In this document: piece by piece, positions 4,858 through 47,831 of the stretch
Layout of the letters: the number at the start of each line of letters is the position of its first letter
How positions within the stretch are numbered: position 1 is the first letter of the stretch
NCBI GenBank assembly: GCA_964016885.1
Contig: OZ024742.1
Span: 57,226,001-57,290,000 of the forward strand
Direction: 5' to 3'
Length of the DNA stretch: 64,000 bases
Source of the DNA: Eledone cirrhosa
Lineage: Eukaryota
Notes under the pieces: model-generated
What the model saw: only the letters and a program-made list of their open reading frames with translations
The model's database searches: none
Told to the model about the DNA's origin: nothing
Translations under genes and position numbers: made by a program

Positions 4858-5118
4858 ATAGATAGACAGACAGACAGACAGACATATAGATATATTTCTT
4901 TATTTACCATAAAGGCATAAAAAGAAGGGACAAATACAAAGGGGGAGTTTACATACAATCGAGTAAAAAGGGTATAAAATGAAAATAATCGAAAACAACC
5001 TCAAAAGGGAGGGGACGTGATGGGGGGTTGCACACCCCCCCCCCTCCCCAAAAAAGTGTGCAATCCTTTGCCCGGGGAGCACATGGAGAAGGTGCTCCCC
5101 TCTCCTTCACTTCTTTAC

Positions 5119-8100
5119 CTACAGGATGGTATACAGAGAAGGCCCATTTACACGAGCCATTCTCGCCACTATCACCCACCTTTCATAAAACTGCCTGTGG
5201 CCAAGCACCTCTCTCTCCATTCTTATCCTTCTTCCGAAGTGATATCGGAAGAAGTAGACCAGACTATGGCCAGAGAGGAAGTTGCCTGACCTCAGACCTT
5301 TCAATCGTGTCCACCAAACAACCTCTTTCAACATGGCTATTACGCACAGAAAAACCGCCTTTGCTTTCTTTGTGAAGAGGGGAGGCGGTTTGATTGTCAT
5401 CACGGACTCAGCGGTCAATTGAATCGGCGCCACCCGCGACAGCAGTCGTTCGGCGTAGCCCCACAGATCAGCCACGCCCGGACATTGCACCAATGCGTGC
5501 GCAACGGTTTCTTCGTGACGCACGCATCTAGGGCAAATCTTTTTTGAGGGATCCCTGCCCGGGCGTCCGTGTCTGTAGAGCCTCTCTCGAACGGGTAGAG
5601 CCCCGCGGTAGCACTGCCAGGCCAGTGACTTCTGGAAGTTGTCCATTGGTCCTGGGCCGAAAGTCCTACCGAACAGGCTGGCCAGTTCGTCTTCCTCCAT
5701 GTCCAGCGACTCTCCAAGGGTGTCATCGCCTCTGCTAGCCACCAGCCCTCTATAGAATGATGAGGTGGATTCTCCACCGATGGCCTGGCCCGCTTGCCAG
5801 AAAGCCCTGAGCGCCTGAGCACACTCAGTGTGCCAGTCTCCCAGTTTTCCGGATCTTTGCTTGACCCAGGACTGTAGCTCGGTGAGTGAGACGAGTCTCG
5901 GAAAGGCTCGTTTCACGAACGGAGCCCACACCGGTTGACCAGTGAGGAATACCTGTAGGTGCCGTAGCCTTAATGCGTGCCTACGCATCATCAACCACGG
6001 CATCCCCAGCCCTCCTTTCGAAGGTTGTTGGCAGCAGATGGATCTTCTCACCATAGGAGGGCGCTTCTTCCAAAGAAATTGGAAGAGCATGCGTTCCATG
6101 GTGGTGAGTGTTTCCTTAGGGCAAGGCACGACAGTCAGGCGGTAGTAAGTGACGGACGCTATGTAAATGTTCGCCACCTCCGCCCGGCCTTTTAGGGACA
6201 GCTTACACTTGGCCCATTTCTGGGTTAGTGCAAACACCTTGTTCGTAACCTCGTTCCAGTTCTTTTCCACCTGGAGGTCCGGTCCAAACCAGACCCAAGC
6301 AACTTTACCGGGCCCTCCGTCCAGTGTCCGACGACACCGTCGGGAGGCATCGGTCTGCCTCTCCACGTTCCGAGTTGCAGCCCGATGGATTTTTCCCGGT
6401 TCAGTTTCGCTCCTGACAACCTTTCGTAATCCTCCAGTAAGGTACCGATCGCCTCGATCTCCGAGTCGGTCGATACCATTACTGTTACGTCATCGGCGTA
6501 GGCCGACACCGCTTTGCTCAATCCTGGTTCCAGGGGGATACCCTGCAACAACTCCAACTTCCTCAGTAAAGGCTCGAGAGTCAATACGTACAGAAGGGAG
6601 GAGAGAGGGCACCCTTGTCGAATGGATCGTGTGATTTCGAACGGCTTCGAAAGGTAGCCGTTCACCTTGATCCTAGAACAGATGTGGTTGCTATGTAAGG
6701 CAGTGATCCAGCCTCTGAAAACAGGACCGAACCCAGCCGCCGCTAGCACCGCATCCAGGTAACCATGGTCGACCCTATCGAAGGCCTTAGACTGATCCAA
6801 GTTGATCAGGGCCCCACCGAAGCCGGGTTTGTTGCCAACCCTCTCTATGATGTAACGCATGAGGTGGAGGTTATCGTGAATGGACCTGGATGGGATAGCA
6901 CATGTCTGCGCATCTCCCACCAGGCTACCCACGACAAGCGCCAACCTCTTTGCTAACACCTTGGCCAGAATCTTTAACTCTGTGTTTAGCAGGGTTATGG
7001 GCCGAAAATTATTTATACTATCCCCCTTGTTCTCGTCCTTCCTCACCAGCGAGACTACGCCCTTGGCTACAGAACAAGGAATTCTCCCGTTCTGCTGCCA
7101 ATTGCAGTAGACCGCTTCGAGGAGTTCGGAGAAGAAGACCGGCATTGCTAAATAAAGTTCGTAAGGTATACCATCGAGACCTGGAGATTTGCGTCTGCTG
7201 CATTGGCTCAGCGCATCTCCGATCTCATCAGCCGAGATTGGTCCCTCTCAGGACTCTGCCTCTTCGCTCGAGAGACGCGGCAGGCCGTCGAGGTATGGAC
7301 CGAAATCCACGTCCCCGCCCGGACCCTCGCCTCCCCCGAACAATCGGGCAAAGTGCCTTTGAAAGGCCTCGCACATCTGCTTAGGCTCCCGGATCACCCG
7401 TCCATCTTCGTCTTGCAACGACCGGATGGTGGATCGATTTCCACTCTTAGCTTCTGTCACGCGGGCCCAGCCAACGGCTTTGGCCCCCTCATTACCTAGA
7501 GCACGTATTTTACTTCGAATGACGCAGCCTTCGTGCTTTGCATCGAAAAACTGGTTCAAGGCCGTCCTCGATGCCATCACTCTGGCCACATCTTCGCTCT
7601 TGATTGCCTCTTCTAATTTACCTGTTAATTCTTTCTCGTTTCTATTCCTATCGGCAGCTAACATCTTGCTATAACTTATTGATTCTGTTTTAATCTCTCT
7701 TTTGAGAGATGCCCACCATCGGTTGTTGACGATTGCACCCGTCAACCTCTCCTTAACTAATCTGCTAATCCGGTTTCTCTAAGTCTCTTTTGCCGGTAAA
7801 GACAAATTAAGTTTCCAGTAACCGGGACCCTGTTTATGTGTTTTCTCGAGATTGACTACGCAGGTCACTAATTTGTGATCCGTGTAGCCAACCGTGCGCA
7901 TTTCTGGACAGCTTAATATGTCCCTATCCTTACTTCTCACTAAGAATCTATCTAAGTACGATCTAGATTGACCACTGTGGTTTCTCCAAGTCCAGGTAGG
8001 CACAGTTGGAAAATCTAGTCGATATCTATCGACCAAGTTAAAACGGTCGAGTAACCCCTTGAGGCTGTTACACCCCCCTCTATTAGGACATGCTCCTGCA

Positions 8101-8555
8101 TAGTCCCAACGTGCATCTAGGATGTCATTCCAATCCCCCACTAGAAGCAGGGAACGCGACGTTCCCAGAAAAGTCTCTAAACGCTGGAAGAAGTCGGGCC
8201 GTTCAGCTCCGAAAGGGGAGTAGACGGCGACCAGTCTTAAGGCCGCACCTTCACTACTGTCAACGTCTAGCACCAACAAACGACTCTCCGGGTCCGAGTG
8301 CACAACCTGTACGGCAAGACCCAGGTGTTTTTGCAGCAGTACGACAACCCCACCCCCACCTCCAGGTTGACAGAGAGATGCATGCACCTCAAAGTCATCG
8401 AAGGTAGGGGCCAGCTGCCGCACGACGCTGATCCGAGTCTCACAGATAACCATTACATTTATACCACATGACCTGAGGTCATTTAGAAGCTTTGCTTGCT
8501 TCCAAGTTGAGCCCAGGCCACGTGCATTCAAACATCCTACTCTTAACACATCCAT
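5119..8555 (-). pseudogene. ORF2 of copy A: AP endonuclease + reverse transcriptase + C-terminal zinc finger
   Basis: LNARGL, GDWN, SYLDR, TDHK (APE). RPITLLN, DQSKAFDRVDH, RQGCPLS, YADD (RT). CPRC...H...C. Split by one stop codon and about two frameshifts. Confidence 0.95.
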
Positions 8556-8588
8556 GTGGGCGGCAGAGCCAAAGGAGAGTGTAGAGAC

Positions 8589-10486
8589 CTACCTTTCCGC
8601 TTCCCGGGGTTCGGGTCGCACGACTTCCATGGGGTCGGGGGTGTTGGGTAAAGGGGTGTCTTGTGGTGGTGTGGGGTCGTCAGTGTGTGGTGGGGTTGGG
8701 GTGTTTGGAGTTGTGTTGGGGAGGGGAAGGGGAGGGGGAAAGCTTTTTAGTAGGACGCGGTTTATGGGTTTGACAGAGGGTGGTCCTACGTCCTCCTTAA
8801 AATCCATTTTTAGTTTTTGGTAGAGGTTCATTGGGATCTTTATTAATTTTAAATGTGGGTAGTTTTCTGAAGAAACAAAGTTTACACCTTCGGTTTGTAC
8901 CGAAGGATTATTGTTTATGAGTTCATTTAATTTATTATTGTTTCTGTTGATGTAAGTATAGTGTAATGTCTTTTTTTCGGATGGTGTGAGTGTTTCGAAG
9001 AGGGGAGGGGCAGGTTTGGTTTTGTTTGTTGCTGGAGGGGTATTTTCTGTTTTGTTGGATTGTGTTGACATTTGGGTGGGGGTTGTTTGGCCTTGTGTGT
9101 TTTGCACATGTTTTCTTTTTTTCCTTTTAATCTGTCTGAAGGACTCCGTTTCTTCCTCCGAATTCGTTGGGTTATCTTCAGTGTTGGAGGGAAGAGGTAT
9201 GTTTGCTGGTAATATTTCCGTGTTGGTTTTCTTTGTGGGGGAGATGGATGTCACTATGTTAGACTGTGTTGTGTGTTGTGTCTGCGGTGGTTGTGTTGTT
9301 TTATTGAGTGAGGGGTTGGGTGGGCCTGTATTTTGTTTTGGGGTAATGTGTTGTGACTGTTTGTGTTGTGGTGGTGGTGTAGTTTTACTGAGGGACGGGT
9401 TGGGTGGGACTGAGTTTTGTTGTTTGTTTATCTGTTGTGGTGGTGGTGGTGGAGCTGGTGTTGGTAGCAGGGTTTTCTTTTTGTTGAGTTGGGGACAAGC
9501 GGCCTTCAGGTACCCTCTGCCTGCACAGATATGACAGGACGGCCTTCTCCCCTCCACGCTAATGTTTATATACCCGTGGCCCTCTAATAGGATTCTGTCG
9601 GGTATTTGGGCGATGCGTTCAGGCTTCATTTGCACTACCAGCTCTATACCTGTTCCACTGAACGCATTGCCTGTGGTTTTCCCAATGGAAATCACGTTGT
9701 CATTCACTGGATCGATGAAGCCAGCTATGAGCCAGCAGTAGTCCACATCTGGCATCATTGCATCCAGCCATATGCGTTGAGTTCTTTTACCCATATAAGA
9801 TGGATAAAAGGTAAAAAAATTTTGAACGAATCGGTGACAAAGCACATTTTTTTGCCGCCGATTCGTTCTTCATGATAATTGCTAGGCTTCCATACAGTCT
9901 GTCTTTTCTTATGAAAGTGGTTTCATTAAGTACTTCTGTGAGTACTGTTTTGATATCTGCTTGAGAGGGCTGTTCAGGTTTTTTTGAAGTGTTGTTGATG
10001 GTGCGGAACACGACCGTTCGACTTTCAATGTCTTTGGTGAGTTCTTGAGGCATTTTTACCGATAAAATACCATTCTCTCCTTCACTTATGTATTGTTTGG
10101 CGTCTGTGATTCTTCGTGCCACATCTGAAATATTTTCAGGTATATATGTCAAAGATTTCTTTGTTGTTTGTGTAAATGAAATCTTGTCGTCTGCTTTTCT
10201 TTCTGTTATGGTGTTATTTTCAAATGTTATTTTTGTGTTTGTTGTGTCTTTGTTTGTGGTATTAGTATTGTCATGCAATTTTTCAAATTTTTTTTTTTTC
10301 GTTGTTGGAATCCATGTCCAGATTTTTTTTTTCCGTCATTTTTCTCCGCAGATTCATCTGTTTTTATTTTATTTTTTCCTTCCTTCTCTATGACGTTAGT
10401 TGGGAAGGAAGGGGGGACTAAAGCGTGCGAGCTTACAACTCTTACCGCTGTCCCCCCACCACTATTTTCGTTCGCTTCGTTTAACA
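8589..10486 (-). pseudogene. Tx1-type ORF1 of copy A, frameshifted at homopolymers
   Basis: Pieces 10227-10640, 9787-10278 and 8589-9845. YMGKRT...VEGRRPSCHICAGRGYLKAAC knuckle (CCHC with H>Y), homologous to ORF1 of copies B and C. Confidence 0.85.
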
Positions 10487-10723
10487 TTTCTGTCAGACGA
10501 TTGAAATTTTTTTTTGCCACAAAATTTTTTAAAACAGGTTTTTCAGCTCTAGGAGGGGTAAAGATGAGCTGACCCACCGCCTGACAGTTCAGACGGGGGG
10601 TCAAGCTACACAATAGTATCAAAATTAAATTTGAACTCACAAAATTTCCGCAATAAATTTGAACAAAACTTCTGCGCGAAGTGAATTACATCCACACTGT
10701 AGAACAGACGACAGCTAGATTAT

Positions 10724-10819
<96 letters not shown>
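10724..10819. repeat. (GATA)n microsatellite between Tx1 copies A and B
   Basis: Direct inspection. Confidence 0.97.
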
Positions 10820-13800
10820 TGTTTCTTTATTTATTTGCCACAGGGGCGTACAAAAATGGGACATTACAAGACGTGACGGCGTGGGTTTTACATAAAATCT
10901 TTAACAATGATAAATAACAATAAACTATATAAAAATAAAACAATTGAAATCCCCATTAGGTGGGGAGGGGCTAACGCTACTGCGGGGTTGTTTTACACCC
11001 CGTGGATAGAACAACCCTCAACACCAAGAACACGTTTTGTAGGTGTTCCCGTCTTCCCTCTGTTTATCTTCCTCAACCTACAGATTTATATACAGAGAAG
11101 GTCCATTTACTCGGGCCATTTTCGCCACATTCACCCACCTTTCAGCGAATTTACTGGGGTGTAGCACCTCTCTCTCCATTTTCACCTTCCTTCTGAAGTG
11201 ATATTTAAAGAAGGGGGTGAGTTGTTGTGCGGAGAGAAAGGTGCTTGCCCTCAGTCCTTTTAACCTCGTCCATCATATTACCTCTTTCGCCATAGCCACC
11301 TAACAGAGGAAGACCGCCTCTCCCTCATTCTTAAATGAAGGCGGCGGAGTGATCCTCACGATGGACTCGGCTGACAACTGTATGCCTTCCACACGTGATA
11401 GTAGCTGTTCGATATAATTCCACAGGTCGGTCACCCCTGGGCACTGAACAATTGCGTGCAGAAAGGTTTCGATGTCCTGCTCGCATCTTGGCCAGGTCCT
11501 TTTGGCAGGATCTCTGCCAGGGCGTCCGTGCCTGTAGATTTTGACTCGAATTGGTAGAGCTCCTCTGTAGCACTGCCAGGCCAGAGACCTCTGGGAGTTA
11601 TTCATAGGCCCTGGACGGAAAGTCCTCCCAAACAGACTGGTCAGTTCGTCTTCCTCAATGCCTAGAGTTTCCCCGAGAACGTCGTCACACATATCCTCCA
11701 CTAATCCCCTATAGAATGTCAAAGTGGAGTCTCTGCTGATTGCCGTTTCCGCTTGGTAGAGGGCTGTGAGCGCCTGAAGGTACTCGAGGTGCCAGGTGCC
11801 CATTTTCGGTCTTCGCTTGACCCAGGACTGCAGCTCTGTTAGTGAGACGAGTTGTGGAAAAGCTTGTCTCACAAACGACAGCCACACCGGTTCGCCAGTC
11901 AGGAACACCTGGAGATGGCGTAGCCTCAGCTCGTGTTTGCGCATCATCAGCCACTGCATTCCCAGCCCTCCGTTAGCAGGGTGTTGACAGCAGATGGATC
12001 TTTTCACCAATGGAGCCTGTTTCTTCCAGAGGAACTTGAAGAGTAGGCGTTCCATTTTGGTGAGGTACTCGTGGGGACAAGGCACGACTGTCAAGCGGTA
12101 GTAGATGACGGACGCTGTGTAAGTGTTCGCCACCTCCGCTCGACCTTTCAAGGAGAGTTTGCACTCATCCCACTTCTGGGTGAGTGCAAACACCTTCGCT
12201 GTGACCTCGTTCCAGTTCTTGTCCACCTGGAGATCTGTACCAAACCAGACCCCGAGCAATTTCACCGGTCCTTCCGTCCAGCATCAAACGACACTGTCGG
12301 AAGGCATGGGTTTGCCTCTCCATGTGCCGAGTTGCAAACCGACAGACTTGTTTGGGTTTAGTCTTGCTCCTATTAACGTTTCGTATTCCTCTAATAGGTT
12401 TCCAATTACCCCGAGGTTTTCGACACCAATACGGTTATGTTGTCGGCATAGGCCGACGCTGCTTTCCGCAGTCCTGGTTCGATCGGGATGCCCTGCAACA
12501 GCTCCAACTTCCGCAGTAATGGCTCGAGAGTCAGTACATTTATAATGGAGAAGAGAGGGCACTCCTGACGGATGGAACGCATGATTTGGAATGGCTCCGA
12601 TAGGTAGCCATTCACCTTGACTGCCGAGCAGATGCTGGTGTGCATGGCAGCGAACCAGCCTCTGAAGGGGGACCGAAGCCGGCCGCCTTGAGAACCACTT
12701 CCAAGTATTGATGCTCGACCCTATCAAATGCCTTATATTGATCTAAATTGATCAGAGCCCCACCGAAGCCAGGTTTACACCCACCCTCTCTATGATGTAT
12801 CGCATGAGGTGGAGGTTGTAGTGTATGGACCTGGTCGGGATTGCACACGTTTGCGCTTCCCCTACCAGGTTCTCGACGACAAGCGTCAGCCTCGGTGCTA
12901 ACACCTTGGCCAAAATCTTTAACTGTGTTGAGCAGAGTTACGGGCCTGAAATTGCTTAACTCATCCCCCTTGTTCTCATCTTTCCTGATCCCCGTTACTA
13001 CGCCTCTGCCTACAGAACTGGGAATCCTCCCGTTCTGCTGCCAGTTGCAGTAAACCGCTTCAAGGACGCCAGAGAACAAGTCTGGCATGCCTATGTAAAA
13101 CTCATAGGATAGACCATCTAAACCGGGTGATTTGCGTTTCCCACAGCGGCCTAGGGCATCTTCTATTTCGCCCGCTGTGATCGGCCTTTCGCAGCTCTCC
13201 GCATCCGTGCTCGAGAATCGTGGTACGCCGTCGAGGTAGGAGCTGAAGTCCATCACCTCCCTTGACGTACCGCTTTGCCCGAACAGTTGTGCAAAATGTT
13301 GCTGGAAGGACGTGCACATCTGCTTGGATTCAAGTAGAATACGTCCATCTTTGTCTTGCAAAGACAGAATTGTGGATTTGTTGCCACTTTTCTCCTCTGC
13401 CACTCGGGCCCAGCTAACAGCTTTGGCTCCCTCGTTTCTTAGAGCACGTGTTCTACTTCTGACAATACAACCTTCGTGTTTCACGTTGAAGAACTGGTCT
13501 TGTGCCGTTCTCGCCGCTAGCACGTCAACTGTACTGCCATTCCTAAGTGCCTCTTCTACTTTAGCTACCAGCTCCTTTTCGGTTTTGTTTTTTTATAAAG
13601 CTACTTCCTTGCTAAATGCTATTTTCTATTCTAATTGCTCTCTTGAGAGAACTCCACCACCTGTTGTTCACGATCGCCCCCATCAACTGGCACTTAACTA
13701 AGATGCTAATCCGTTTACTGTAGGCCTTACGCGCCGGAAGCGACATGTTTAGCTTTCAGTATCTGGGTCCATGTCTATGTGTTCTATCAAGGTTGACTAC

Positions 13801-16038
13801 GCAGGTGACTAATTTTGTCTGAATAGGCAACCATGTGCATTTGTGGACAGCTTAATGTTTCCTTATCTACTCTTCTAATTAAAATTTATCTAAATACGAC
13901 CTAGAAGACCCAGTGCGGTTGCTGCACGTCCACAGTGGTACACTTTGGAATTCTAATCGATATCTATCGGCCAGTTGGAATCGGCTGATGAGATTTTTGA
14001 GGCTATTACACCCCCTCTATTATCACAAGCTCCTACATAGTCCCAACGTGCATCTAAGATGCCATTTCAGCCCCCGCTAACACTAAGGAGCGAGACGTTC
14101 CCAGGAATGGCTCCAGACGCTTGAAGAACTCTGGTCGCGATGTCCCAGTCGGGGTATATATACGGCCACCAGTCTGAAATCTCCACCTTCACTACCATTC
14201 ACGTCGAGGACCACCAAGCTGCCCTCCGGGTCCAAGTGAAACGTTTGTGCTTTGAGATCCAAGTTTTTTCGAAACAGAACAGCAACTCCCCCTCCACCTC
14301 CTGGCTGACAGAGAAATGCGTAGATCTCAAAGTGGCTATCACATCTATACAATGTGACCTGAGATCATTTCAAAACTGGCCCTGTTTCCAGGGCATGCCC
14401 AGGCCACGTACATTCAAACATGCAACTTGTATATTCGCCATGTTGGTGAAGAAGAGATAGGGAGAGAAAAGGCAGGAACACTTACCTTTTCGTTTCCTGG
14501 AGGTCGGGTTGTTCGATCTCCATGTCCAGATTAGGGGTGTTTGGGGAGGGAGGTAATCCTTTTAGCAGGACACGGTTAAGGGGTTTTTGGCAAGGGGGGC
14601 CCACATCATGTGGGAAGGTCCCTTTCAATGTTTCATGTTGTAGGGTTGTTACCCTGATCAGTTTGAGGTCGTTGGTGGGGAAGGTTTTCGCTTCAGTTTG
14701 GATAGTATGGTCCTTTCGGACAGTATCTACCAATTCTTTGTTTGTTGTTTTTATGTACGTGTAAATGTGTTTTGTATTTTATGTGTGCTGTTTCTGTTTG
14801 TAGATTTCTTTTTGTGGTTGGGGTTTGTGATTGTGGTGGTGTGAGTGTTTGTTTTGATGGTAAGTGTTTGGTTGTGTTGGTGATGATTGTGTTGTTGGTG
14901 TGTTTGTCGTTTGTGGAGGTGTGTTTATGGTGGAGTTGAGCGTGTGCGTGTTTTCTGCAGATGTTTTTGTTTTTGTGTTTTTGTGTCTCTTTTTTGTTTT
15001 TTGGATTTTTGGGGTTCCTCTTCATACTCACTTGGAGATGTAGAGGCTCCCGTGTCTGAGACTTCTGAATCAGGGGTAGATGGGAGGGGTATGTTGTGTG
15101 GTGGAGTGTTTGTGCAGGTGTTTGTGGAAGTATTTGACAGGGAGGGAGGAGGCAATGGAGGGTTTTTCAGTGGGATTTTGTGTGTGGTTGTCTCTGGTCT
15201 GTGGTGGTGTGGGAGTGCATGTTGCAGGTTTTTGTGTTGTGTTTGATGTTGGGGCTTTGGTGTTGGTAATAACACCTTGTTTTCCTCGGTTTGTTTAAGA
15301 GAGCGCAAAAGAGAGGACACACTTATGGCACTGAGGTCTTTTCCCTTCCACTAAAATTGAGATGACATCTTCCTCAAGGACGATCCTGTCCGGGATTTTC
15401 TCAACTCTCTCTGGCCTCATTTGTATCAAAACCTCGATGCAGGTTCCAAACCAGTTATTCCAGTCTGTCCTGTTAGATAGGAGGGTGTCCTCATCCTTCT
15501 TCAGGGTGCAGCGTAGGATCCACCATATGTTGACCTCTGCTGGGATCCTGGTTATTTTTATTTTGTAAGATCTTCTTCCCATGTATGTGGGGAAGAAGAT
15601 GTGTTGATCCGTTTTTATTGAGTGAACCGAGTGTTTTTGAGCCAGAGTTTCGCTCTTAAAGAGCACTGACACACTTCCATACTGCTTAGCTCTTTGGGGG
15701 TATGCCACGTCTGGCTTGATATCTTTTAGTGCAGCGTTATGGGTTTTTTTGGTAATGATGTCAACTGTTCTATAGATTAGTTTCTTTTTCTGTGTAATCT
15801 CTCTTACTCGTGGGGGTATGTGTATGTGTGGGGTGTCTCCCTCAAACGTCACATAGTTGGAGGCTTCTTCCAAATATTGGGACTTTTGGGAAATGTCCAT
15901 GGGTAATATTTAAAATCCTGTTGCTTAGCAACGGTTGCTGCAAATGAAATTTTGTTATTGTTATTGTTGGTGGTGATGATGGTCTCATTCGTTGTGTTGC
16001 CGCTGATTCCTTTTGTTGTATTGTTGTTGTTCTCATTT

Positions 16039-16069
<31 letters not shown>

Positions 16070-16534
16070 CTGCTGCTGCTGCTGCTGGTTGTGGTGGTGT
16101 TAGTATTTGCTACACATTCTTCCTTCTGTGTGTGGATACATGTGACGTTTGTGACGTCAGGCGTGTTCAGTTGCTTACAAGCAACTGAAGCTTGTTCCTC
16201 TTCTAAATGTTGAGGTGATAATGTTGGCATTCCTTTGTCCTGGTCTTCTACTACCTGCTGGTCAAGTAGGCATGGCTTTCCCTTCCCATCTTCTTGTATT
16301 GAGAAAAAGAAGTAGGTGCCTTTGCTTCGGCCATTTTTTTTAAATTGAAATGTTTTGCAAAAATATTTTCGAAAATATGTTGGATGTTTTTGCCCTGAGG
16401 GGCACGATATTTTGGGAGACTGACCAGATCAAAATTTGACCTGTCAGTCCCTCTACAAATTGGTATAAAAATAAAAGACGAATTTCTAAAGGAATTTAAA
16501 CAAAACTTACCGAGCAAGTTTAACACATGTGTCC
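10820..16534 (-). mobile_element. Tx1/L1-clade LINE, copy B (diverged subfamily, multiply frameshifted)
   Basis: ORF1 pieces 14482-~16330 (YMGRRS, VEGKRPQCHKC). ORF2 11078-14441 with RPVTLLN, DQYKAFDRVEH, YADN and KLSLKGRAEVAN. Confidence 0.93.
11078..14441 (-). pseudogene. ORF2 (APE-RT) of copy B, disrupted
   Basis: ORF pieces 14083-14352, 12612-13523, 12406-12645, 12284-12727 and 11300-12265 are collinear with copy A ORF2. Confidence 0.9.
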
Positions 16535-16546
16535 AGATAGATAGAT

Positions 16547-16635
<89 letters not shown>

Positions 16636-16638
16636 CAA

Positions 16639-25097: not shown

Positions 25098-25885
25098 AAT
25101 ATATATATATTATATATATATAATATATATATTTATATAAATATATATATATATAAATATATATATATATCCATGATACTACTGCAAAACATAAAAATAA
25201 CTGTAACTGCACTAAACCAGGTTCGTGCCCATTGAATAATCAATGCCTAACACGCAATATTGTCTACCGATGTACAATAAACTCCGGAACCAGTTGCGCC
25301 AGCATATAAGCAAAATCACCGATTTTGTAAATTATGCAATATGGAGATATACTGCATTTTAACGTCGGAAAACAAACTTTTGAACAGCAAAATTGAACGT
25401 TCACTTTACTGTAAGCATCGTTTAAAAACGACTTTTTCTTTTTTTAAATGCATGTAATGGTATCTTTTTACACCACCATTTGCAAATTTTTATTATTTTT
25501 ATTTCATATTTTTATATGTTTATACAAACGATATGGCTTTTTTATAATAATAGCACTAAACACTGTTTTTAGACCCCTTTAGAAATATCCTGCTACTATA
25601 ATAGCCCCAATAACTTGTCTATTATTCTGTACTACATTGACCCCTTTAACTAAATTTTGTCCAAACAACACCACTAGAAGAATTTACTTCCCCCGCCAAC
25701 CCTAACACGCCTCATTTAGCTAACTGCTGCCAAAACATTTTCTTCTATACAATCTCTACTACTCTGACAGTCTTGAATCCTGAGACTACCTCCCCCTTAC
25801 TCGCTTCCCTCTTCCTCTTCCCTTCCTACCTCCTACTTTCTCACATATCTAGTGTATAAAATATTCTTCTATCATTCTACCATAA

Positions 25886-26003
25886 AGGTCTGACGACATG
25901 GTGTGTTCTTCTTACAGTGTACCTACGATTTATGATAATATTTTTATATTATACAAATAGCGAGGTATAGGTAACCTACACACTATAGAAACAATTGTTA
26001 CCT
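25886..26003 (+). ncRNA. Type I hammerhead with long stem II insertion (F7), 5' pLTR
   Basis: AGGT-CTGACGA-cATGGTGTG...~75 nt...CACACTATa-GAAA-C-AATT-GTT^-ACCT. Palindrome AACAATTGTT. Confidence 0.75.
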
Positions 26004-26231
26004 AATAATTTCTTTATACTCGCATTTCGGTTTCATAAACTTCTTCTTCATATTTTCTCCGGATTTTAAAGCTTATTTTATTATACGTTGAGCAATCTCC
26101 GACGTCGGTTGACTCCATCCAATGCGACTACCTAGTAACATTAAAGTACAGATTTATTAATTCTTCACACTCCTTTACAGTCGAGTAACCTATCAACCTA
26201 CGTCTCTGAAATGGAAAAACATCATTGTGGT

Positions 26232-28491: not shown

Positions 28492-28919
28492 TGTTATCTT
28501 TTTACACCACCATTTGCAAATTTTTATTATTTTTATTTCATACTTTTATATGTTTATACACACGATATGGCTTTTTATAATAATAGCACTAAACACTGTT
28601 TTTTAGACCCCTTTAGAAATATCTTGCTACTATAATAGCCCCAATAACTTGTCTATAATTCTGTACTACATTGACCCCTTTAACTAAATTTTGTCAAAAC
28701 AACACCACTAGAAGAATTTACTTCCCCCGCCAACCCTAACACGCCTCATTTAGCTAACTGCTGCCAAAACATTTTCTTCTATACAATCTCTACTACTCTG
28801 ACAGTCTTGAATCCTGAGACTACCTCCCCCTTACTCGCTTCCCTCTTCCTCTTCCCTTCCTACCTCCTACTTTCTCACATATCTAGTGTATAAAATATTC
28901 TCCTATCATTCTACCATAA

Positions 28920-29037
28920 AGGTCTGACGATATGGTGTGTTCTTCTCACAGTGTACCTACGATTTATGATAATATTTTTATATTATACAAATAGCGAGGT
29001 ATAGGTAACCCACACACTTTAGAAACAATTGTTACCT
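28920..29037 (+). ncRNA. Type I hammerhead with long stem II insertion (F7), 3' pLTR
   Basis: Same fold as 25886-26003. Confidence 0.75.
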
Positions 29038-29080
29038 AATAATTTCTTTATACCCGCATTTCCGTTTCATAAACTTCTTC

Positions 29081-29123
<43 letters not shown>

Positions 29124-32096: not shown

Positions 32097-32478
32097 ATAC
32101 CTTCCTGTCAGATGATTGAACGTTTGAAAGTATATACTTTCCTTATGCATATTAACGGCTGAGCAGCCTAATTTGCATATCGAGTGAGTTAGTCGGCCGG
32201 GTGTACCGAAAACGATAAATGTAAAAATAAAATTTCATTTCTCACTCTTAGTACGGCTGATACTTAAATGTAAGTATGTATACGTACATACATATATGTA
32301 TACGTACATACATATATGTATACAGACGTACAGTAGTATGTATATACATACATACATGCGCACATATATATATTACGTATGGGTTTACCGAACATTTATT
32401 TTAATGCTCGGTTTGTTTGTAAACAAACAGCCCGAATTATTAGCCGTACAGTGTTCGGCAACCAACACTGACAAAGGA

Positions 32479-32521
32479 ACGATGAACTAGTTTCAATCTT
32501 ATTAGCTGTCATCAGCACCGT
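32479..32521 (-). ncRNA. Type I minimal hammerhead (F1)
   Basis: ACGGTG-CTGATGA-cagct-aata-agatt-GAAA-CTA-GTT^-CATCGT. Stem I ACGGTG/CATCGT keeps pairing despite differing from ACGTTG/CAGCGT at 618. Confidence 0.8.
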
Positions 32522-33174
32522 ATACCTTCCTGTCAGTTGGTTGAACGTTTGAAAGTAAATACTTTCCTTGTTCATCGTTCCTTTGTCAGTGTTGAACAAA
32601 TAGGGCAGCGATGGTTGCCGAACACTAAACGGCTAATAATTCGGGCTGTTTGTTTACAAACAAACCGAGCATTATAATAAATGTTCGGTAAACCCATACG
32701 TACATATATATATGTGCGCATGTATGTATGTACTGTACGTCTGTATACATATATGTATGTACGTATAAATACTTACATTTAAGTATCAGCCGTACTAAGA
32801 GTGAGAAATGAAATTTCATTTTTTCCAATATTACAATAGATTTAGATATATTCCGATATTCTAATGTTTCTGTCAATACTTCAACTGAAATACTAAACTT
32901 AATTATTACTGATAGAACGTTTTTGACAATATGTCCGCTTGATCGAGGGCTACCTGAGACTAAACTGCAACCGGGACTCAATTCAGTGCGAGACCACCTC
33001 GTGTTCTTCAGTGCATGCCGTATAGTAGATAATGGTATTCCATTTTATCGACAGCGGAAAGATGAAAGACAAAGTTTGCTTAAGAGACGTAACCAAACAC
33101 TACGAAACGTTTTGTCTGGCGCTTTACCGATTCTACCAATCCACTAACCTTTACCTCTCAAATGATGATGTATG

Positions 33175-36628: not shown

Positions 36629-36719
<91 letters not shown>

Positions 36720-36849
36720 GAAGTTATATTTTATTTGTTGGGATACAACAAGCAAATATTTTTATAACTGATATAAAGCACTCAACAAATTTTTGGAGTA
36801 AAAATACAATATATTAATAAATGGAAACTATATTTATAAAACCATATTT

Positions 36850-36912
36850 ATTTCATTATACATATTTCAAGGACACCAAAGCAAATTATGGTGCGCTTTC
36901 ATCAGATAAAAT
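36850..36912 (-). ncRNA. Type I hammerhead (F10)
   Basis: ATTTTAT-CTGATGA-AAGcGCACCA...TGGTGTcCTT-GAAA-TATGT-ATA^-ATGAAAT. Confidence 0.8.
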
Positions 36913-39069
36913 ATAATATAGATCAGTTTTATAGACAAATATTGACATACCCTTAAAAGAATGCGCCCATGTCTGTTGGAAGCTCCCGGATAGTGGGGTT
37001 ACTAATTTTATTATTGGTCTATTATGCAAATTAGTGTCGGAGAGGTTTAAATCTCAAACATTAATGCTCTTTTACGAATACAAATAAAAAATCTTCAACT
37101 TCTCTATCTAGCTTACTATGGGACCTAAAATTAAAGAACATTAACTATTCTTTACTTTGGAATATTATCTCCAAAGCTCCTCCATTCCATTCCTCTTCCG
37201 AAAATTGCGCTCTTTGTATTGAGGAAATATTCTTTATATTAAAGCGCAAAAATTCTGTGAATTTAAGAAACAATCTTTTCAGTTGCTGCAAACATAGATT
37301 GAATTCAACGTTTAAATATAAATTTAAAATGTAATATATAACTCATCTTATTAAACCCATCGATAAATCACTAGATTCCTTCGTACGACTGCCAAAAACT
37401 CTCTTAATTGAGGAAAAATTTTTCCTTGAAAATTCTTCAAGATAAACATACTTAAAGTTTTTTTTTTAAATGGATATATAAAAAAATTAAGATAAACATA
37501 CTGAAAGTTTCAAAAAAAAAGGGATTTTTGGTTAATTCCTCTGATGGATACATAAAAAGTTGTAATTCATATTTTATACTGTGTTTTTTCTATGTGTTCT
37601 TATATATATTTTTTAAAAGGCTACATATTTTTGGAATTGTATTGCTTAAAAATTACATTGCTTAAAAATGTAATTCCTTTTAAAATTATATAATTATATT
37701 TTTTAAAAATTGTAATTCCTTTTTTAAAAATTGTAATTCCTTTTAAAATTATAATCCTTTTAAAATTATAAATCACATTTTTTTTTTATTTTATAGTATG
37801 TATTTTGTATTTATATATATATATATGTATATATGTATACGTATGTGTGTATATGTATGTATATGTATGTATATATATATGTGTGTATATGTGCGTATCC
37901 ATGTATGTATGTCTATGTATATGTGGGTCTATATATATCGAAATGTATAATTTTGAATGCATTCTATGAATGAACTCATGTAAAAAGGTTTTTTTACGGT
38001 TTATGCTTTAGATATATTCTTAAGAAAAACTTTAAATATTAAGACGTTATAGTAAACAAACTCATATTTTAACAGTCACAACTATATAACAGGTGGATCT
38101 ATAAAATATATAAATTTTATAACTTACTATAAAGTAATATAAGGTTCTCTTATAATCTTAATTTTTTTATCATCTTAACTTTTATAACATTTAATCATTA
38201 GAACTATCTAAATTACAAATAAATCAATTAATTTCCCCTCACGCTGTATTGCTATTACTAAGAAGAGTTTTTCTTCAGTAAAATCTCTGAACATTCCTAC
38301 ATTTTAAACATATTTTGTCATTTCTTATAAGTTTTATTGTTAATTGAAAAATTAATAATAAATTGTTGGTTGATGATTAATAATAAATTTATGTAAGGTT
38401 ATGTAATAATAACATATATTTTAATAATATTTGTTGATGGTATATATATATATATATATAAATGTGTGTGTGTGTGGGGGGGGGGGTGTATTTTTTTAAT
38501 AAAATATAGATCTCAATTTTTAATTTTAACTTTTATAGATCTCAATAATTTAATCAAATTTAAACAATAGATAAATTTCTCCGGTTACTACTATTTATTT
38601 GTTTATTTATCTATACACGCTAACTCATCCAACTATATATTTATCTTTTCGCTTCATCATTTCATAAAACTACGTTAATACAACACTCTCTCACTTAGGG
38701 TTTTCTCTCTTTCTCTTTCTTCTTTTGTTTTTTCCTTTTCCTTTTCTTTTCTTTTGTTTTCCTTCTTTGAAGCGCAATTTTCGGAAGAGGAATTGAATGG
38801 AGGAGCTTTGGAGATAATATTCCAAAGTAAAGAATAGTTAATGTTCTTTAATTTTAGGTCCCATAGTAAGCTAGATAGAGAAGTTGAAGATTTTTTATTT
38901 GTATTCGTAAAAGAGCATTAATGTATGAGATTTAAACCTCTCCGACACTAATTTGCATAATAGACCAATAATAAAATTAGTAACCCCACTATCCGGGAGC
39001 TTCCAACAGACATGGGCGCATTCTTTTAAGGGTATGTCAATATTTGTTTATAAAACTGATCTATATTAT

Positions 39070-39132
39070 ATTTTATCTGATGAAAGCGCACCATAATTTG
39101 CTTTGGTGTCCTTGAAATATGTATAATGAAAT
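39070..39132 (+). ncRNA. Type I hammerhead (F10), inverted copy
   Basis: Same fold as 36850-36912. Confidence 0.8.
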
Positions 39133-39171
39133 AAATATGGTTTTATAAATATAGTTTCCATTTATTAATAT

Positions 39172-39244
<73 letters not shown>

Positions 39245-39291
39245 AAGTGAAGTAAATGCCTTAGTACAGTAAGATATGTTTAAAAAAGAGA

Positions 39292-39953: not shown

Positions 39954-40043
<90 letters not shown>

Positions 40044-40310
40044 TTATATATATATATTAGTTATGCATCGAAGCTAAAGCTGCCACAGGACAGATACCAA
40101 TCGAATTATTTGAGGCAGTCACAAAACACTCAATGTTGTGAAAAGGAAATAACATTTCTCAATCGGAATTAACATATTAAGTTATATAAGAGTAACACAA
40201 TGACTATATTGACTAGGTGTGTGTAGCCATAGTATATAACCACAACAATGACAAATACCAACAGGTAAATTACTACCCTGGACAGATTCGGTGTCTATAA
40301 CTCCGAGAAA

Positions 40311-40345
<35 letters not shown>

Positions 40346-40350
<5 letters not shown>

Positions 40351-40524
40351 GAGGAGAAAGTCGATTAAGTCGACCACGTAAGGATGGAAGGCAAAGCTAA
40401 CCTCGGCGGGATTTGAACTCAGAACGCAAAAGGCCATAAACTCTATGCCGCAAATCATGTTGTTCGACGCTCTACAAAGACTGCTTATCCACCACATTAA
40501 CATTATATATATATATACATACAA

Positions 40525-40619
<95 letters not shown>

Positions 40620-40838
40620 TGTGTTTGTATGTATATATATATATAATGTTAATGTGGTGGATAAGCAGTCTCTGTAGAGCGTCGAACAACATGATTTGCG
40701 GCATAGAGTTTATGGCCTTTTACGTTCTGAGTTCAAATCCCGCCGAGATTAGCTTTGCCTTCCATCCTTACGTGGTCGACTTAATCGACTTTCTCCTCCC
40801 CTAAAATTGCTAGCCTTGTGCCTAAATCGAACCATTAT
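40346..40838. repeat. Two SINE copies as a near-perfect palindrome around (CA)n(TA)n(TG)n
   Basis: 40346-~40545 is the reverse complement of ~40595-40801 with about 3 mismatches. B-box GAGTTCAAATCC. Confidence 0.9.
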
Positions 40839-41500
40839 ATATGTGTGTGTGTGCGTGTGTTTGTGTTTTAAAAATATATATTATGGTACTGATTTACGCA
40901 CACGGCTAGCTATTTTAGGAGAGAGTAAAGTCGATTAAATCGACGCAGAGCATTACTGGTGCTTTATTTTGTATTCTCCTTTATTTCTAATCAGTTCAAT
41001 TTAGAAACGCTTTCTATCAGATTCAGATTGATACCCAATTCATCAAGCTTTCATAATAATTAAATTAGTATTCAAAAGTTGAATATTTCGTTTTTTGATG
41101 CACATCTTTCCGCAGCAGTTATAAAACAAAATATCACGTTCAACCTGTCTGAAAACTTCGTCTGTGGAATACTTAACCACTTACAGTTTAATTTAATTTG
41201 TAGCTAGTTCAACTAACCTAATAACTAGAATACCCTTCGTTGAATTCGACAGAGAATCAGTTCACTTTATAGTAATATATGCTTATGTATAAACAATGTT
41301 TGTAGATAGACTGAGAGAAAGATACATGGATAGACTGACAGATAGATTGAAATGTAAACTCTCCGGTAGATATATAGATGGATGGATGAAATGGCAGATA
41401 GATAGACAGACAGATAGACACATAGATTCATGGATAGACTAGCAGATAAATAAAGAGGGGATAGAGATGCCGATATAGATATATAGATAGATAGATAGAT

Positions 41501-44500
41501 AACTTTCTGTTTATTTGCCACCAGGGCATAAAAGATTGGGACAAATACAAAGGGGGAAGTTTACATACAATAAAACGAGTACAAAAATAAAACAAACAAA
41601 ATAAAACAATCGAAGTCCTCAATAGGGAGGGGGCATTTTGGGGGTCGCACACACACCCGAAAAAATGTGCAACCCTTCTCCTCGGGAGCACAAAGAGAGG
41701 GTGCTCCCTTCTTCTCCTATTCTTTCCACCTACAGGCTGATGTAGAGAGAAGGCCCATTCACACGGGCCATTCTCGCCACTTTCACCCACCTTTCATAAA
41801 ACTGGCTGGGGGTGGAGTACCTCTCTCTCTATCCTGATCCTTCTTCCGAAATGATATCGAACAGGCTGGCCAGTTCTTCCTCCTCCATGCCTAGGGCTTC
41901 TCCGGGGGCGTCGTCGCACCTGCTGCTGACCAACCCTCTATAGAATATCGAAGTGGAGTCTCCACTGATAGCTGGGTCCGCCTGCCAGAGAGCCGTGAGC
42001 GCCTGAGCACACTCCGTGTGCCAGGCGCCCAGTTTTCTCGGTCTTTGCTTGACCCAGGATTGCAGCTCGGTAAGCGAGACGAGTCTCGGAAAGGCTCGCC
42101 TCACAAACAGGGCCCACACCGGTTGACCGGTGAGAATTACCTGCAGGTGACGTAGCCTTAGTGCGTATCTGCGCATCTTCAGCCACGGCATCCCCAGCCA
42201 TCCTTTCGAAGGGTGTTGACAGCAGATGGATCTCCTCACCAAAGGAGCCCGCTTCATCCAAAGAAATTGGAAGAGTGCGCGCTCCATTTTGGTAAGCGTT
42301 TCACCTGGGCAAGGCACGGCAGTGACGGACGCTATATAAGCGTTCGCCACCTCCGCGCGACCTTTCAGGGATAGTTTGCACTCGGCCCACTTCTGGGCCA
42401 GTGCAAACACCCTGTTCGTTACCTCACCCCAGTTCTTCTCCACCTGGAGGTCTGGTCCGAACCAAACCCCGAGCAGCTTCACCGGGCCCTCCGTCCAGCG
42501 TCCGACGACGCTGTCGGAGGGCATCGGTTTGCTCCTCCACGCTCCGAGTTGCAAACCGACGGACTTGTCCCGGTTCAGCTTCGCCCCTGTAAACCTTTCG
42601 TATTCCTTCAGTAAAGTGCCGATCGCCCCGATTTCCGAGGTACTCGACACCATTACTGTCACGTCATCGGCGTAGGCCGACACCGCTTTCTGCAATCCCG
42701 GTTCCAGGGGGATGCTCTGCAACAACTCCAACTTCCGCAGCAGTGGCTCGAGAGCCAGCACATACAGAAGGGAGGAGAGAGGGAACCCCTGTCGGATGGA
42801 CCGCGCGATTTGGAACGGTTCCAAGAGGTAGCCGTTCACCTTAACCCTCGAGCAGATGTGGCTACTGTGCATGGCAGTAATCCAGCCCCTGAAAACGGTT
42901 CCGGAACCTGCCGCCGCTAGCACCGCATCCAGGTAACTATGGTCGACCCTATCGAACGCCTTAGATTGATCCAAGTTGATCATGGCCCCACCAAAGCCGG
43001 GTTCATTCCCTACCCTCTCTATGATGTATCGCATGAGGTGGATGTTGTCGTGAATGGACCTGGACGGGATAGCGTATGTCTGCGCATCTCCAACCAGGTT
43101 GCCCACGACAAGCGCCAACCATCTTTGCTAACACCTTGGCCAAAATCTTTAACTCCACATTTAGCAGAGTTATGGGCCTGAAATTACTTATTTCATCCCC
43201 CTTGTTCTCGTCCTTCCTCACTAGCGAGACTACGCCCTTGGTCACAGAACAGGGAATTCTCCCGTTCTGTTGCCAGTTGCAGTAGACCGCCTCGAGGAGA
43301 TCGGAGAAAAAGTCCCGCATCGCTACATAAAGTTCGTATGGAAGACCATCGAGACCCGTGGATTTGCGTTTGCCGCATTGGCTCAGCACGTCCCCTATTT
43401 CAGCAGCTGAAATCGGCCTTTCGCAGGACTTCGCCTCCTCGCTCGAAAGACGCAGTAGGCCGTCGAGGTATGGACCGAAAAGCTAACAGCTTTGGCCCCC
43501 TCGTTTCCTAGAGCACGTATTTTGCTTCTGACAACGCAGCCTTCGTGCTTCGCGTCGAAAAACTGGTCTAAGCCCGTTCTCGATGCTAGCACTCTTGGCT
43601 ACGTTGCCGCTTCCAATCGCCTCTTCTATCTACCAACTCCCTTTCCTTCCTATTCCTATCTGAGGCTAATTCCTTACTAAAACCTATCGAGACTACTCTA
43701 ATCTCTCTCTTGAGAGAGCCCCACCACCTGCTGTTGACGATAGCTCCCGTCAACCGTTCCTTAACTAAAGCGCTAATCCGATCCCTGTAAGCTTTACTTG
43801 CCGGTAAGGACAAGTTCAGCTTCCAGTAACCGGGTCCCTGTCTATGCGTCCTATCAAGGTTGACTAAGCAGGTCACTAATTTGTGATCGGAATAGCCAAC
43901 CATGCGCATCTCTGGACAACTTAGTAGGTCCCTATCCTTATTTCTAACTATGACCCTTTCTAGGTACGACCTAGATGATCCGCTGGGGTTAGTCCAAGTC
44001 CAGGCCGGCGCAGTCGGAAAATCTAGTCGATATCTATCGGCCAGATCAAATCGGCCGATTAACCGTTTGAGGCTGTTACACCCCCCCCCCCTCTATCGGG
44101 ACATGCCTCTACATAGTCCCAACGGGCATCTGGGATACCATTCCAGTCCCCCACTAAAAGCAAGGGGCGGGACGTCCCTAGAAAAGTCTCCAGACGTTGG
44201 AAGAAGTCCGGCCTCGTTGCCCCAAAAGGGGCATAGCGGCGACCAGCCTAAAGGCTCCACCTTCACCACTGCCAGCGTCTAGTACCACCAGTCGACCCTC
44301 CGGGTCCAAGTGCACCGTCTGCGTTGCAAGGCCCAAGTGTTTTTGCAGCAGAACGACAACCCCACCCCCACCACCTGGCTGACAGAGAGATGCAGAGATC
44401 TCAAAGTCGTTAAAGGTGGGGGCTAGCTGGCGTTCGCTGCTGACCCTGGACTCGCAAATAGCCATGACATTTATACTGCGCGACCAGAAGTCATTTAGAA

Positions 44501-46765
44501 GTTTTGCCTGCTTCCAAGGAGAGCTCAGGCCACGCGCCTTCAAACATCTTACTCTCAATACAGCCATGTTGGCGGCGAAGGGGAAGAAAAAGAAAAGGCA
44601 CCTACCTCCTTACGTCCCGGGGACCGGGCTGCACAACTTCCATGGAGGTGAGGTAGGGGTTGTTGGGTGAGGTGGTGGTTTGTGGTGGTGTGGGGACTTG
44701 AGAGTGTGGTGGGGTTGGGGTGTTTGGTGTGGTGAAGGTGTCTGAGGTGGGGGTGGGGAAATTTTTCAAGAAGACGCGGTTCATTGGTTTTGCACAGTAG
44801 GGGGGGAACGTCCTCAGGAAAATTGTCTTTTAGTTCTATATAAATGTCTATCGGAGTTTTAATCATTTTTAAAGAGGGGTTCTCTGTGTCCCTCGTGAAA
44901 TTTGGCCCTTCGGTTTGCACCGAAGGATTTTGTTCAATTTTGTTTACAAGTTTTATATTTTTTGTGTTGAAGTATGTGTATAGCTGTGTCTGTGTAATTT
45001 TTGTTGGTTTTTGTTCTGTATTTTTTTGTGTTTTGTTTTGGGGAGGGGTTATTTTTCTTTGTGTGGGTGCGGTGTGTTTTCATTTTTTTCGCTTTATTTT
45101 TTGGAAGGGCTCCCCCTCGTCTTCTGACGTTAAGGGATCCTCTTCCATGTTGGAGGGGAGGGGTATATTTTGGGGTTTTGTTATGTACGTTGTTGGAGTT
45201 GTTTTAGGTGGGAAGGGGTTGGGTGGGACCGTGTTCAGTTTTTTGTTGACTTGTTGTGTTTGTTGTTTTGGGGGTGCTGGTGGTGGTGGTGATTGTGTTT
45301 TTGTTTGTGGAGTTGTTTTGGGTGTGGAGGGGTTGGGTGGGTCCGTGTTCAGTTTTTTGTTGACTTGCGTTTGTTCTTGTTGTGGTGGTGGTGGTGGTGG
45401 TGTTGTTTTTGGAGGTGTTGGGAGTTAAGGTTTTTTAGTTTGTTGAGGACAGGCAGCCCTCAGGTGACCTCTGCCTCCACAGAGGTAGCAAGTGGGCCGC
45501 CTACCCTCAACTGCAATGTTCATAAATTGGGAGCCTTCCAGGGACACTCTTTGGGGTATCTTTGCGATACGTTCTGGTTTCATTCGAACCAGAACCTGTA
45601 TGCATATACCGTCAAAGTGGCCCCTGGTGGCTTTGCATATATCAAGGAGTTCATCTTCGTCGTCCAGTATCCCTCCTAGTATTCACCACATATTTGTATT
45701 TGGGTGTATACCGGAGATTGTTATTTTTTTAGTTTTATTCCCCATATAGGTGGAGAAGAAAGAGTACTGTTTAGACACAATTGGCGACACCGAGTATTTT
45801 TGGGCCACCAATTGGTCCTTCATCAAAATTATCAGACTCCCATATAACTTCCCTCTCTCAATAAAAATCATATCCTTCAACGCGTCTTTTAACACCAGCT
45901 CAATTTCGCTATGCGATAATTGAGCTGGTTTTTTCGACGCATTTGATATAGTTCTAAAATTAATTGTCCTTAGGACCGTGTCTCTTTTAATATCCTTAGG
46001 GGAAATTATGGTGAATTCACCCTTTTCACCAAAGCTCACCTGTTTTATCCCCTCTTTTAGCAATTCCGCTGCATTACTGATGTCAACTGGGGTGAAAGTT
46101 TCGGTCTCCTTAACGACCTGAGCAAAGGATATTCGTGTAGTGAGGTCTTCTTTTGTGTTTCGTTGCTGTTGTTCTTGTTTTCTTGGGTGTTTGCGTTTTG
46201 TTGTTGTTGTTGTTACAGTTGTGGTACAGTTTTTTGGGGTTTTCACCCATTTTTTCGGGTTTCGCGTTCACATTTATGTTGTTTTCTTTGTCATTGTTGC
46301 TGCTGTTTTCGCTTTTGTGTGTGTTTGTGTTATTTTCTTTGTTATTTGTGTTGGTGTTGTAGGTGTCAGTGTAATTTATACATTCTTTCAATTTACTGTT
46401 ACCATTGTTTGGGTTATTACTCAAGTTTTTACAATCGTTCGCCAAATCCGCTTCCATACTCGCATGCGAAAGCGAGAGAAGGGAAGCTTCAGTAAGTTGA
46501 GTTACTTGTTCCTCTTTATCACTTTCCCTGGGGGGCGTGGCAGTGATGTTTTCATGTATGGTGTCCATTATTGTAAGTTGGTATACAATTTTTCAAAGTA
46601 GTTTTTACCCCCAAAAAGGGGTAAAAATAAAATAACCACCCGTCTGCAAGTCCAGGCGGGAGGTTAGGTCACACAAATAAAACAAAAGAAACACAAACTC
46701 ACAGTCAAAAACGTAATACAAATCCAAAAAGGCTGCAGCTGAAGTAACACACGTCTACTATTAAC
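41501..46765 (-). mobile_element. Tx1/L1-clade LINE, copy C (closer to A), with internal deletions
   Basis: ORF1 pieces 44602-46568. ORF2 41730-44567 with DQSKAFDRVDH and YADD. Deletions near 41857 and 43480. (GATA)n at both junctions. Confidence 0.93.
41730..44567 (-). pseudogene. ORF2 (APE-RT) of copy C, disrupted
   Basis: ORF pieces 44178-44567, 43586-43909, 43003-43389 and 41829-43118. Confidence 0.9.
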
Positions 46766-47831
46766 GATATATAGATAGATAGATGTGTTTTACACTATTT
46801 CATAATTGTCTCATAAAGACAGGTTAAATGGGATTTGTTTTTGCAAAAGAAACTATTAATGAAGGATAACTTGTTGCAATATTTAATTAATACTGGAATT
46901 TCGGCAACACTGTGCCGTTCACTTCATCGTGAGAGGAATTACTACGACTTTTAATCAAAACAAAAAGCTTAGCAATTAAAACTTTAGAAATAACCATTAG
47001 CTGATTAGTTTTTGGGAAAGATATGTGATCGTTAAATTTAAGTGCTGCGCACTCGAAATAATGGTACTATTAATGAAAATGTGTTTTGCCAGTAAATAAA
47101 ATGACCTTCAAGCGATGGTTATTCATTTAATATTTCGTTTTATTGCTGTAATAGAAGATGGTGAAATATAGAGAGGGATAAGAGGTGGTGGGTTATGTAA
47201 AATGTTGTAGCCTTGTGGTGCGTGGCGAAGAGGTTGAGAGGGGGTAGAGCCAGAGTGAAACAGTGAGAGAGAGGATTGAGTAGTAAATAATAAAAAAAAA
47301 TGAGAAATAGTAAGAATTAGAAGGAAAAATAAAAAGACAGAACGATGGACAAAAATAAGCAAATATATAGAAAGAGAGAAATGAAGGAAAGAACAAATAT
47401 ATTTAAAAAGAATAAGAAAGAAAATGTTAACAAGGAAAAACAAAGGAATTAAAAATAAATGGATAAAAAGGTCAGATAAAAGTTAATAAACAGGGAATGA
47501 ATTATATTGTGTGGATAAAGATATGAAAAAAGGAATGAATGAATGGAACCGTGAAGGAGTAAGAAGATTAGAATATTAGATAAAACTTTATTAAAAAAAA
47601 ACATGAAGTAAATGTTTAAAAAATACACGAGAACAAACACAGAGGAAAAATAAAAAGCAAATGAAAAATATTTTTTAAACTTTTATAAGTATTCTAATGT
47701 TGCCAAGTGCCTGCTGTTGTCGCTGTTGTTGTACTGCTGTTGTTGTTGTTAATGTTGTTCCGCTGTTGTTGCAGTTGTTGATATTGATAATAATAATTTT
47801 TTCTATTTGTTGTCACAAGACCAGCAATTAT

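Follow-up and report, generated by a model that had tools for sequence, protein, structure and literature searches.

Three LINEs in the 64-kb stretch of DNA analyzed here (64,000 nucleotides; the window) probably represent a cephalopod clade of L1/Tx1-type elements that prefers (TATC)n microsatellites, and for elements of this known type TATC/GATA probably is a new target among the microsatellites. We put at about 0.85 the probability that the (TATC)n tracts existed before the insertions and that the clade prefers them. If this is confirmed, (TATC/GATA)n would be added to the few microsatellites that APE-type LINEs are listed as targeting, with a mollusc as the example. The elements, designated A, B, and C, and their junctions are as follows.

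4858..4893, minus strand: 3' junction tract of A, compound TATC/TGTC on the element strand
4894..10716, minus strand: element A, near full-length L1/Tx1-type LINE, about 5.8 kb
4899..4904, minus strand: AATAAA at the 3' end of A
5119..8555, minus strand: ORF2 of A, with APE (PF03372), RT (PF00078), and zf-RVT (PF13966)
8589..10487, minus strand: ORF1 of A, frameshifted
10717..10820, minus strand: (TATC)24 tract shared by B (3' end) and A (5' end)
10821..16533, minus strand: element B, about 5.7 kb, heavily decayed
About 16334-14482, 14441-11078, and 10831-10826, minus strand: ORF1, ORF2, and AATAAA of B
16534..16635, minus strand: 5' junction tract of B, (TATC)21-TTTC-(TATC)3
41295..41482, minus strand: decayed TCTA/TCTG/TCCA tract downstream of C
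41478..41496, minus strand: candidate 19-bp target-site duplication of C, 3' copy
41502..46765, minus strand: element C, about 5.3 kb
About 46568-44602, 44567-41730, and 41515-41510, minus strand: ORF1 with the PF00098 zinc knuckle, ORF2, and AATAAA of C
46766..46784, minus strand: candidate 19-bp target-site duplication of C, 5' copy

All three are L1/Tx1-type LINEs of 5.3 to 5.8 kb, with a zinc knuckle in ORF1 and an APE-RT-zinc finger ORF2 that is broken in every one of them. The ORF2 of A is interrupted by two stops and a frameshift near 6295, with the endonuclease domain (8555-7782) open; that of B has many stops and many frameshifts, and that of C has frameshifts as well as two internal deletions relative to A. 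In A, whose 5' end (10716) was inferred from where a high-depth contig ends, ORF1 contains a stretch resembling a zinc knuckle and, after it, a low-complexity region, and is homologous to the ORF1 of a sister family described below. The CCHC knuckle was matched by PF00098 in C and in the sister-family ORF1, is degenerate in A, and is broken in B. Tandem duplications lie in a homologous place inside the proline/threonine-rich part of ORF1, 84 bp in A (9265-9460) and about 110 bp in C (45194-45410). No further fragments of these elements were found in the window.

The AATAAA precedes the first TATC by 6 to 8 nt in all three elements. Their 3' ends can be aligned to AATAAA-(0-4 nt)-AGAAA-NN followed by the repeat, which is entered in one phase each time (AGAAA-NN-TATCTAT). 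No poly(A) was found at the 3' ends of A, B, and C, and these ends folded no better than shuffled sequences (z, -0.6 to 1.6). An earlier note on this DNA, made from the letters alone, had described Tx1/L1-clade LINEs with AATAAA-containing 3' ends running into (TATC)n without poly(A). An L1/Tx1-type anatomy is supported by PF03372, PF00078, and PF13966 on A and the knuckle in C, and the description of the 3' ends was confirmed in all three elements. The note had also spoken of the three LINEs as one family; they form one clade, but they are not copies of one family.

A, B, and C belong to three families, with DNA identities of 77 to 85% in the RT and 67 to 70% in the ORF1 core. They formed a clade (SH-aLRT, 100) in a 50-row quick tree without a named reference. 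In the same quick tree, the protein P0002 and an Argonauta protein joined that clade (99), and relatives at about 42% identity were sister to the resulting cephalopod clade. Among named proteins, those of Argonauta hians come closest (62 to 67%), and together with the repeat-rich DNA and a SINE that resembles those of octopus, they make the host likely an octopod. There were no named Tx1 proteins among the protein search matches, and a search for ORF1 homologues gave no match. The ORF2 anatomy of APE, RT, and a C-terminal zinc-binding region is common to the L1 clade and is therefore not diagnostic of Tx1. A separate ORF1 with a CCHC zinc knuckle is a Tx1-clade feature, and at the motif level we take the window elements to resemble Xenopus Tx1. 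A, B, and C likely belong to Tx1. The endonuclease of A aligns with the L1 catalytic motifs, and the top structural matches of its predicted model (pLDDT, 84) were L1 endonucleases. An LTx chimera ranked first in the fold search, by a marginal difference, and was set aside. Human L1 ORF2p (PDB 8sxt and 1vyb) is like A in its endonuclease fold (A's being predicted), its catalytic residues, and a 9-residue hairpin loop. However, it is distant from A (136 bits, versus 611 for a 43% relative), and unlike A, B, and C, human L1 has a poly(A) end and a weak TTAAAA preference.

A appears to be the youngest of the three elements. Between 0.11 and 0.64 of its sampled words were present in nine listed runs, which carry six organism labels and come from five studies. 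In run X4, 13,043 contigs matched A, and its unique flank was matched without difference, whereas the raw Hi-C run X10 yielded 0 reads. The contigs of run X4 read other letters at both stops of A and an extra base at its frameshift, and A is therefore a damaged member of a family that is young and abundant. The depth was 2374 for one 5'-end contig and 6.5 for that of the unique flank; depth cannot be read as a number of copies, but this suggests hundreds of copies. The family seems to be young and abundant across several related species. In Octopus vulgaris, 13 recently active L1-Tx1 families have been counted (80 families in all), with 421 near-full-length insertions of about 5.4 kb on average, a size like that of A, B, and C (PMC13282606). 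The searched parts of that paper mention no target preference ("target" occurs 0 times in the main text, and GATA, TATC, and AGAT occur 0 times in the supplement), and nothing on targets was found in the available text of PMC11203168 and PMC3747384.

The association of the elements with (TATC)n at both ends is not due to chance. Five perfect AGAT-class runs of at least 12 bp occur in the window (10724-10819, 16535-16549, 16551-16635, 41483-41501, and 46771-46784), and all of them are located at junctions; 10724-10819 is (GATA)24, and the 3' end of A has GATA(GACA)5 at 4861-4884. Outside the elements and the junction neighborhoods, the 46,642 bp scanned contained no AGAT run, although 128 other simple-repeat runs were present there, 74 of them AT. 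All three elements lie on the minus strand, in one orientation relative to the repeat, so that every junction tract reads TATC on the element strand. The independent 5' junctions are only two, those of B and C, as the 5' tract of A is the 3' tract of B; by the rule of three, the chance that both have such a run, so oriented, beside them has an upper bound of about 2e-5. The 5' tract of C has only 3.5 perfect units. The repeats reported earlier were all present where the note had placed them, and the common orientation stood. Its statement that (TATC)n precedes the 5' ends holds for B and C; for A, that tract is also the 3' tract of B and is separated from the probable 5' end (10716) by 7 nt, ATAATCT. 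Kojima's criterion for target preference is that more than 20% of copies are flanked by one sequence type, and in a sample of only three elements from one window, TATC flanks 3 of 3.

Tx1-group elements are often target-specific, among them Mutsu (5S) and Dewa (tRNA spacers). Waldo/Mino, Dong, and Togen are placed in other clades. For the Tx1 clade, Kojima (2015) describes preferences that include those of Keno, Kibi for (TC)n, Koshi for (TTC)n, and crocodilian families for (TTCC)n/(TTTC)n (PMC4494074). Like A, B, and C, the Kibi, Koshi, and crocodilian elements are APE-type LINEs of the L1/Tx1 group in microsatellites. In target and host, as described in that source, they differ from A, B, and C: the flanks here are (TATC)n rather than (TC)n, (TTC)n, (TTCC)n, or (TTTC)n, and the host is likely a cephalopod rather than a fish or crocodilian. 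Elsewhere, ACAY, AC, TC, TTC, and TAA are listed as microsatellite targets (PMC3812793, which calls the mechanism of such specificity not well understood), and TG is listed in another paper (PMC4640811). Waldo/Mino (ACAY and AC), Dong (TAA), and Togen (TG) are, like A, B, and C, non-LTR elements that insert into microsatellites, but their targets are others, and GATA/TATC is not listed in the available parts of these two papers.

Scans of viral, metagenome, and genome contigs yielded no more cephalopod copies with flanks; the genome contigs gave only relatives in metagenome-assembled genomes (MAGs) and one further locus, L040 (JALWDV010000429.1). The latter is a 3.6-kb contig of an Anaerolineae MAG, with a eukaryote-type LINE followed by TG-rich repeats, and is likely a contaminant. 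A scan of prokaryote genomes found 38 loci (L001-L038) in one MAG, G001, with 42% amino-acid identity in ORF2; this MAG evidently holds animal DNA. G001, a GTDB 'Arenicella' MAG (record CAXXMW01; contigs C3-C19; loci L001-L039 and L041-L083), has several hundred kb of animal-like DNA, which flags contamination.

Sixteen G001 contigs were examined whole. They contain head-to-tail LINE arrays, often of intact elements, with an ORF1 homologous to that of A, B, and C. Of 73 sister-family 3' ends found by motif, none had poly(A) and none had TATC or GATA repeats. A spacer of about 16 to 18 nt begins 0 to 3 nt past the AATAAA, and it agrees with the host flank on contig C17 over 18 nt with 2 mismatches (both flanks), on C18 over 16 nt, and on C6 over 17 nt (5' flank), whereas the array starts on contigs C4 and C19 match their own spacer only in part. 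Since no tails were found at the 73 ends and the spacers match the host flank where it is readable, the sister lineage is tailless and makes 16- to 18-bp duplications, a size like that of the candidate duplication in C. The G001 family resembles A, B, and C in its homologous ORF1, its tailless AATAAA end, its head-to-tail copies, and its duplications (a 19-bp candidate in C), but each array has its own nonrepetitive spacer, and GATA is found at no junction.

The spacers fall into 12 clusters, two of which overlap on contig C8, leaving about 11 unrelated ones, mostly one per array. Ten sister-family endonucleases that were compared are 90 to 100% identical; 33 of 37 loci have one and the same hairpin loop, and the remaining 4 differ from it by one substitution. 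Near-identical endonucleases at about 11 unrelated sites suggest that site fidelity may have a source other than the enzyme. Neighboring copies are mosaic, 98 to 100% identical in the 3' part and 67 to 100% identical in the 5' part, and the spacer of the array precedes some 5'-truncated copies (contigs C9 and C19). Because neighbors are 98 to 100% identical in the 3' part, the arrays could grow without RNA guidance, and unequal crossing-over or gene conversion may account for much of their growth. Rfam gave no match at gathering scores in the window or in four MAG loci and only sub-threshold matches at an array junction, so that an RNA-gene target was not seen.

We propose that the elements, by target-primed reverse transcription, enter a (TATC)n/(GATA)n tract that is already present, the GATA strand of which is predicted to be nicked by the endonuclease. 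Cleavage of transcripts typically falls 10 to 30 nt downstream of a poly(A) signal. As the element stops at this signal, its transcripts would end in UAUC: they would run a few UAUC units beyond the AAUAAA and pair with the nicked strand. Such pairing would fix site, phase, and orientation and would account for the A-B tandem, B having come first and the younger A having then entered the tract at its 3' side. Each insertion would duplicate about 16 to 19 bp, and later slippage would resize the tracts. More tentatively, the endonuclease may merely tolerate the repeat, with RNA pairing carrying much of the specificity. We consider this mechanism in full, as targeted reverse transcription with pairing of read-through RNA, to have a slightly better than even chance of being correct. 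RNA-target pairing has been described for the I factor, R1Bm, and R2Ol (PMC6007223). As a hypothesis, pairing of the read-through RNA is a serious candidate for the source of specificity in A, B, and C, where one target is found across three families only 67 to 85% identical.

The earlier note had instead attributed the specificity to the APE itself recognizing GATA. Recognition by the APE is only one candidate, and the sister family, with its near-identical endonucleases and array-specific sites, favors RNA pairing at least as much. Direct reading of (GATA)n by the endonuclease, comparable to that of its site by Tx1L-EN, with the RNA end adding little, is unlikely but still has real weight. 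Tx1L-EN nicks nearly only its target in vitro, and the hairpin loop shapes nicking (PMC1950540); Kibi and Koshi are further precedents. A conserved 9-residue hairpin loop is present in A, C, and four cephalopod-clade proteins, unlike in most of the sister group: the loop is 9 residues long in all 5 of the proteins with 55% identity or more and 11 residues long in 62 of the 78 relatives with 37 to 55%. This fits specificity at the level of the enzyme. However, L1 likewise has 9 residues, and this length is the most frequent one among distant relatives (124 of 163), and the sites in the sister family are unrelated despite the likeness of its enzymes. Enzyme reading and RNA pairing can also act together.

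An RNA-borne "site memory" is a possible extension that we regard as rather doubtful. Each transcript would carry along, as its guide, the 16- to 19-nt target-site duplication of the parent element, which would give locus-specific arrays in unique DNA, as in G001; a cephalopod ancestor that landed in (TATC)n would have made its whole clade microsatellite specific without the endonuclease learning a sequence. If true, specificity could be gained in one insertion and reprogrammed through a few 3' bases, and an RNA-programmed LINE target would be of interest for site-specific insertion tools. Together, the clade and a sister family with array-specific sites make the question of endonuclease versus RNA-target pairing testable. 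Neither a GATA-targeting LINE nor array-specific site memory was found in the searchable literature, mostly without subscription papers, and Repbase may already note such a family.

The repeats could also be a self-encoded 3' tail in the style of RTE, CR1, or L2, the 5' tracts being the tail of a neighbor or due to chance. We consider this quite improbable, and the sequences support the TATC repeats as target rather than tail. The single phase at all three 3' joins fits a tail, as does the identity of A's 5' tract with B's 3' tract, and microsatellite tails are common in RTE elements; same-phase joining without poly(A) is compatible with both target and tail. A microsatellite at the 3' end only is the trait of RTE-, CR1-, and L2-type elements, but B and C have TATC at the 5' end although no element lies upstream. 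C is bounded on both sides by an identical 19-bp string, including the same ATAT interruption (46784-46766 and 41496-41478), for which the probability of a chance match is 1 to 7% under a simple mutation model. Past the 3' tract of C, about 190 bp of decayed TCTA-like repeat continues, with 13 exact TCTA in 188 bp (41295-41482) versus at most 6 in any of 2428 background windows. A looser tiling score for this tract was not discriminating, with 22 of the 2428 background windows scoring as high, mostly AT runs. A, although young, is followed by a compound TATC/TGTC tract and not by a clean tail, and the sister family is tailless at 73 of 73 ends. The view that repeats on both sides favor a target over a tail was thus strengthened by the candidate duplication and decayed tract of C and by the tailless sister family. 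No informative duplication was found in A or B (the best match for A was 9 bp, and the TTTC interruption of B is absent on the 3' side). Among 18 contig loose ends listed of 951, none had a GATA repeat, in a comparison that skipped both junction repeats, and a few 5'-side ends in organism F in this listed set resemble nonrepeat flanks, which counts against targeting.

That there is no targeting and insertions merely persist in repeat-rich, low-constraint DNA is very improbable. In its favor, 9.3% of the host DNA consists of simple repeat, and (TA)n bounds several foldback elements as well as a Penelope-like element. This explanation is largely refuted by the location of all three LINEs at AGAT, in one orientation, where 74 AT and 0 AGAT runs were on offer.

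Other repeats in the window include the Penelope-like element at 25168-29087, which has a 710-amino-acid frame (26264-28396, plus strand), contains a direct repeat of 759 bp (97.8%), and is flanked on either side by (TA)n. The frame gave no Pfam match above the cut-off; we take it to have RT-like and C-terminal GIY-YIG-like motifs. A region at 63106-63702 (minus strand) is presumably a second Penelope-like fragment with a GIY-YIG-like region, and one at 59249-59914 (minus strand) is presumably a C-terminal fragment of another LINE with CR1-like motifs. Foldback or MITE-like inverted repeats were found at 265-931, 32223-32823, 36799-39183 (413-bp arms, 99%), 40346-40803, and 49190-49827, several of them bounded by (TA)n. 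An imperfect inverted repeat (4760-4857) lies directly beyond the 3' tract of A. SINE-like repeat copies are present at 47830-47985, 2382-2519, 40372-40493, and 40656-40777, and we assume that this SINE resembles those of octopus.
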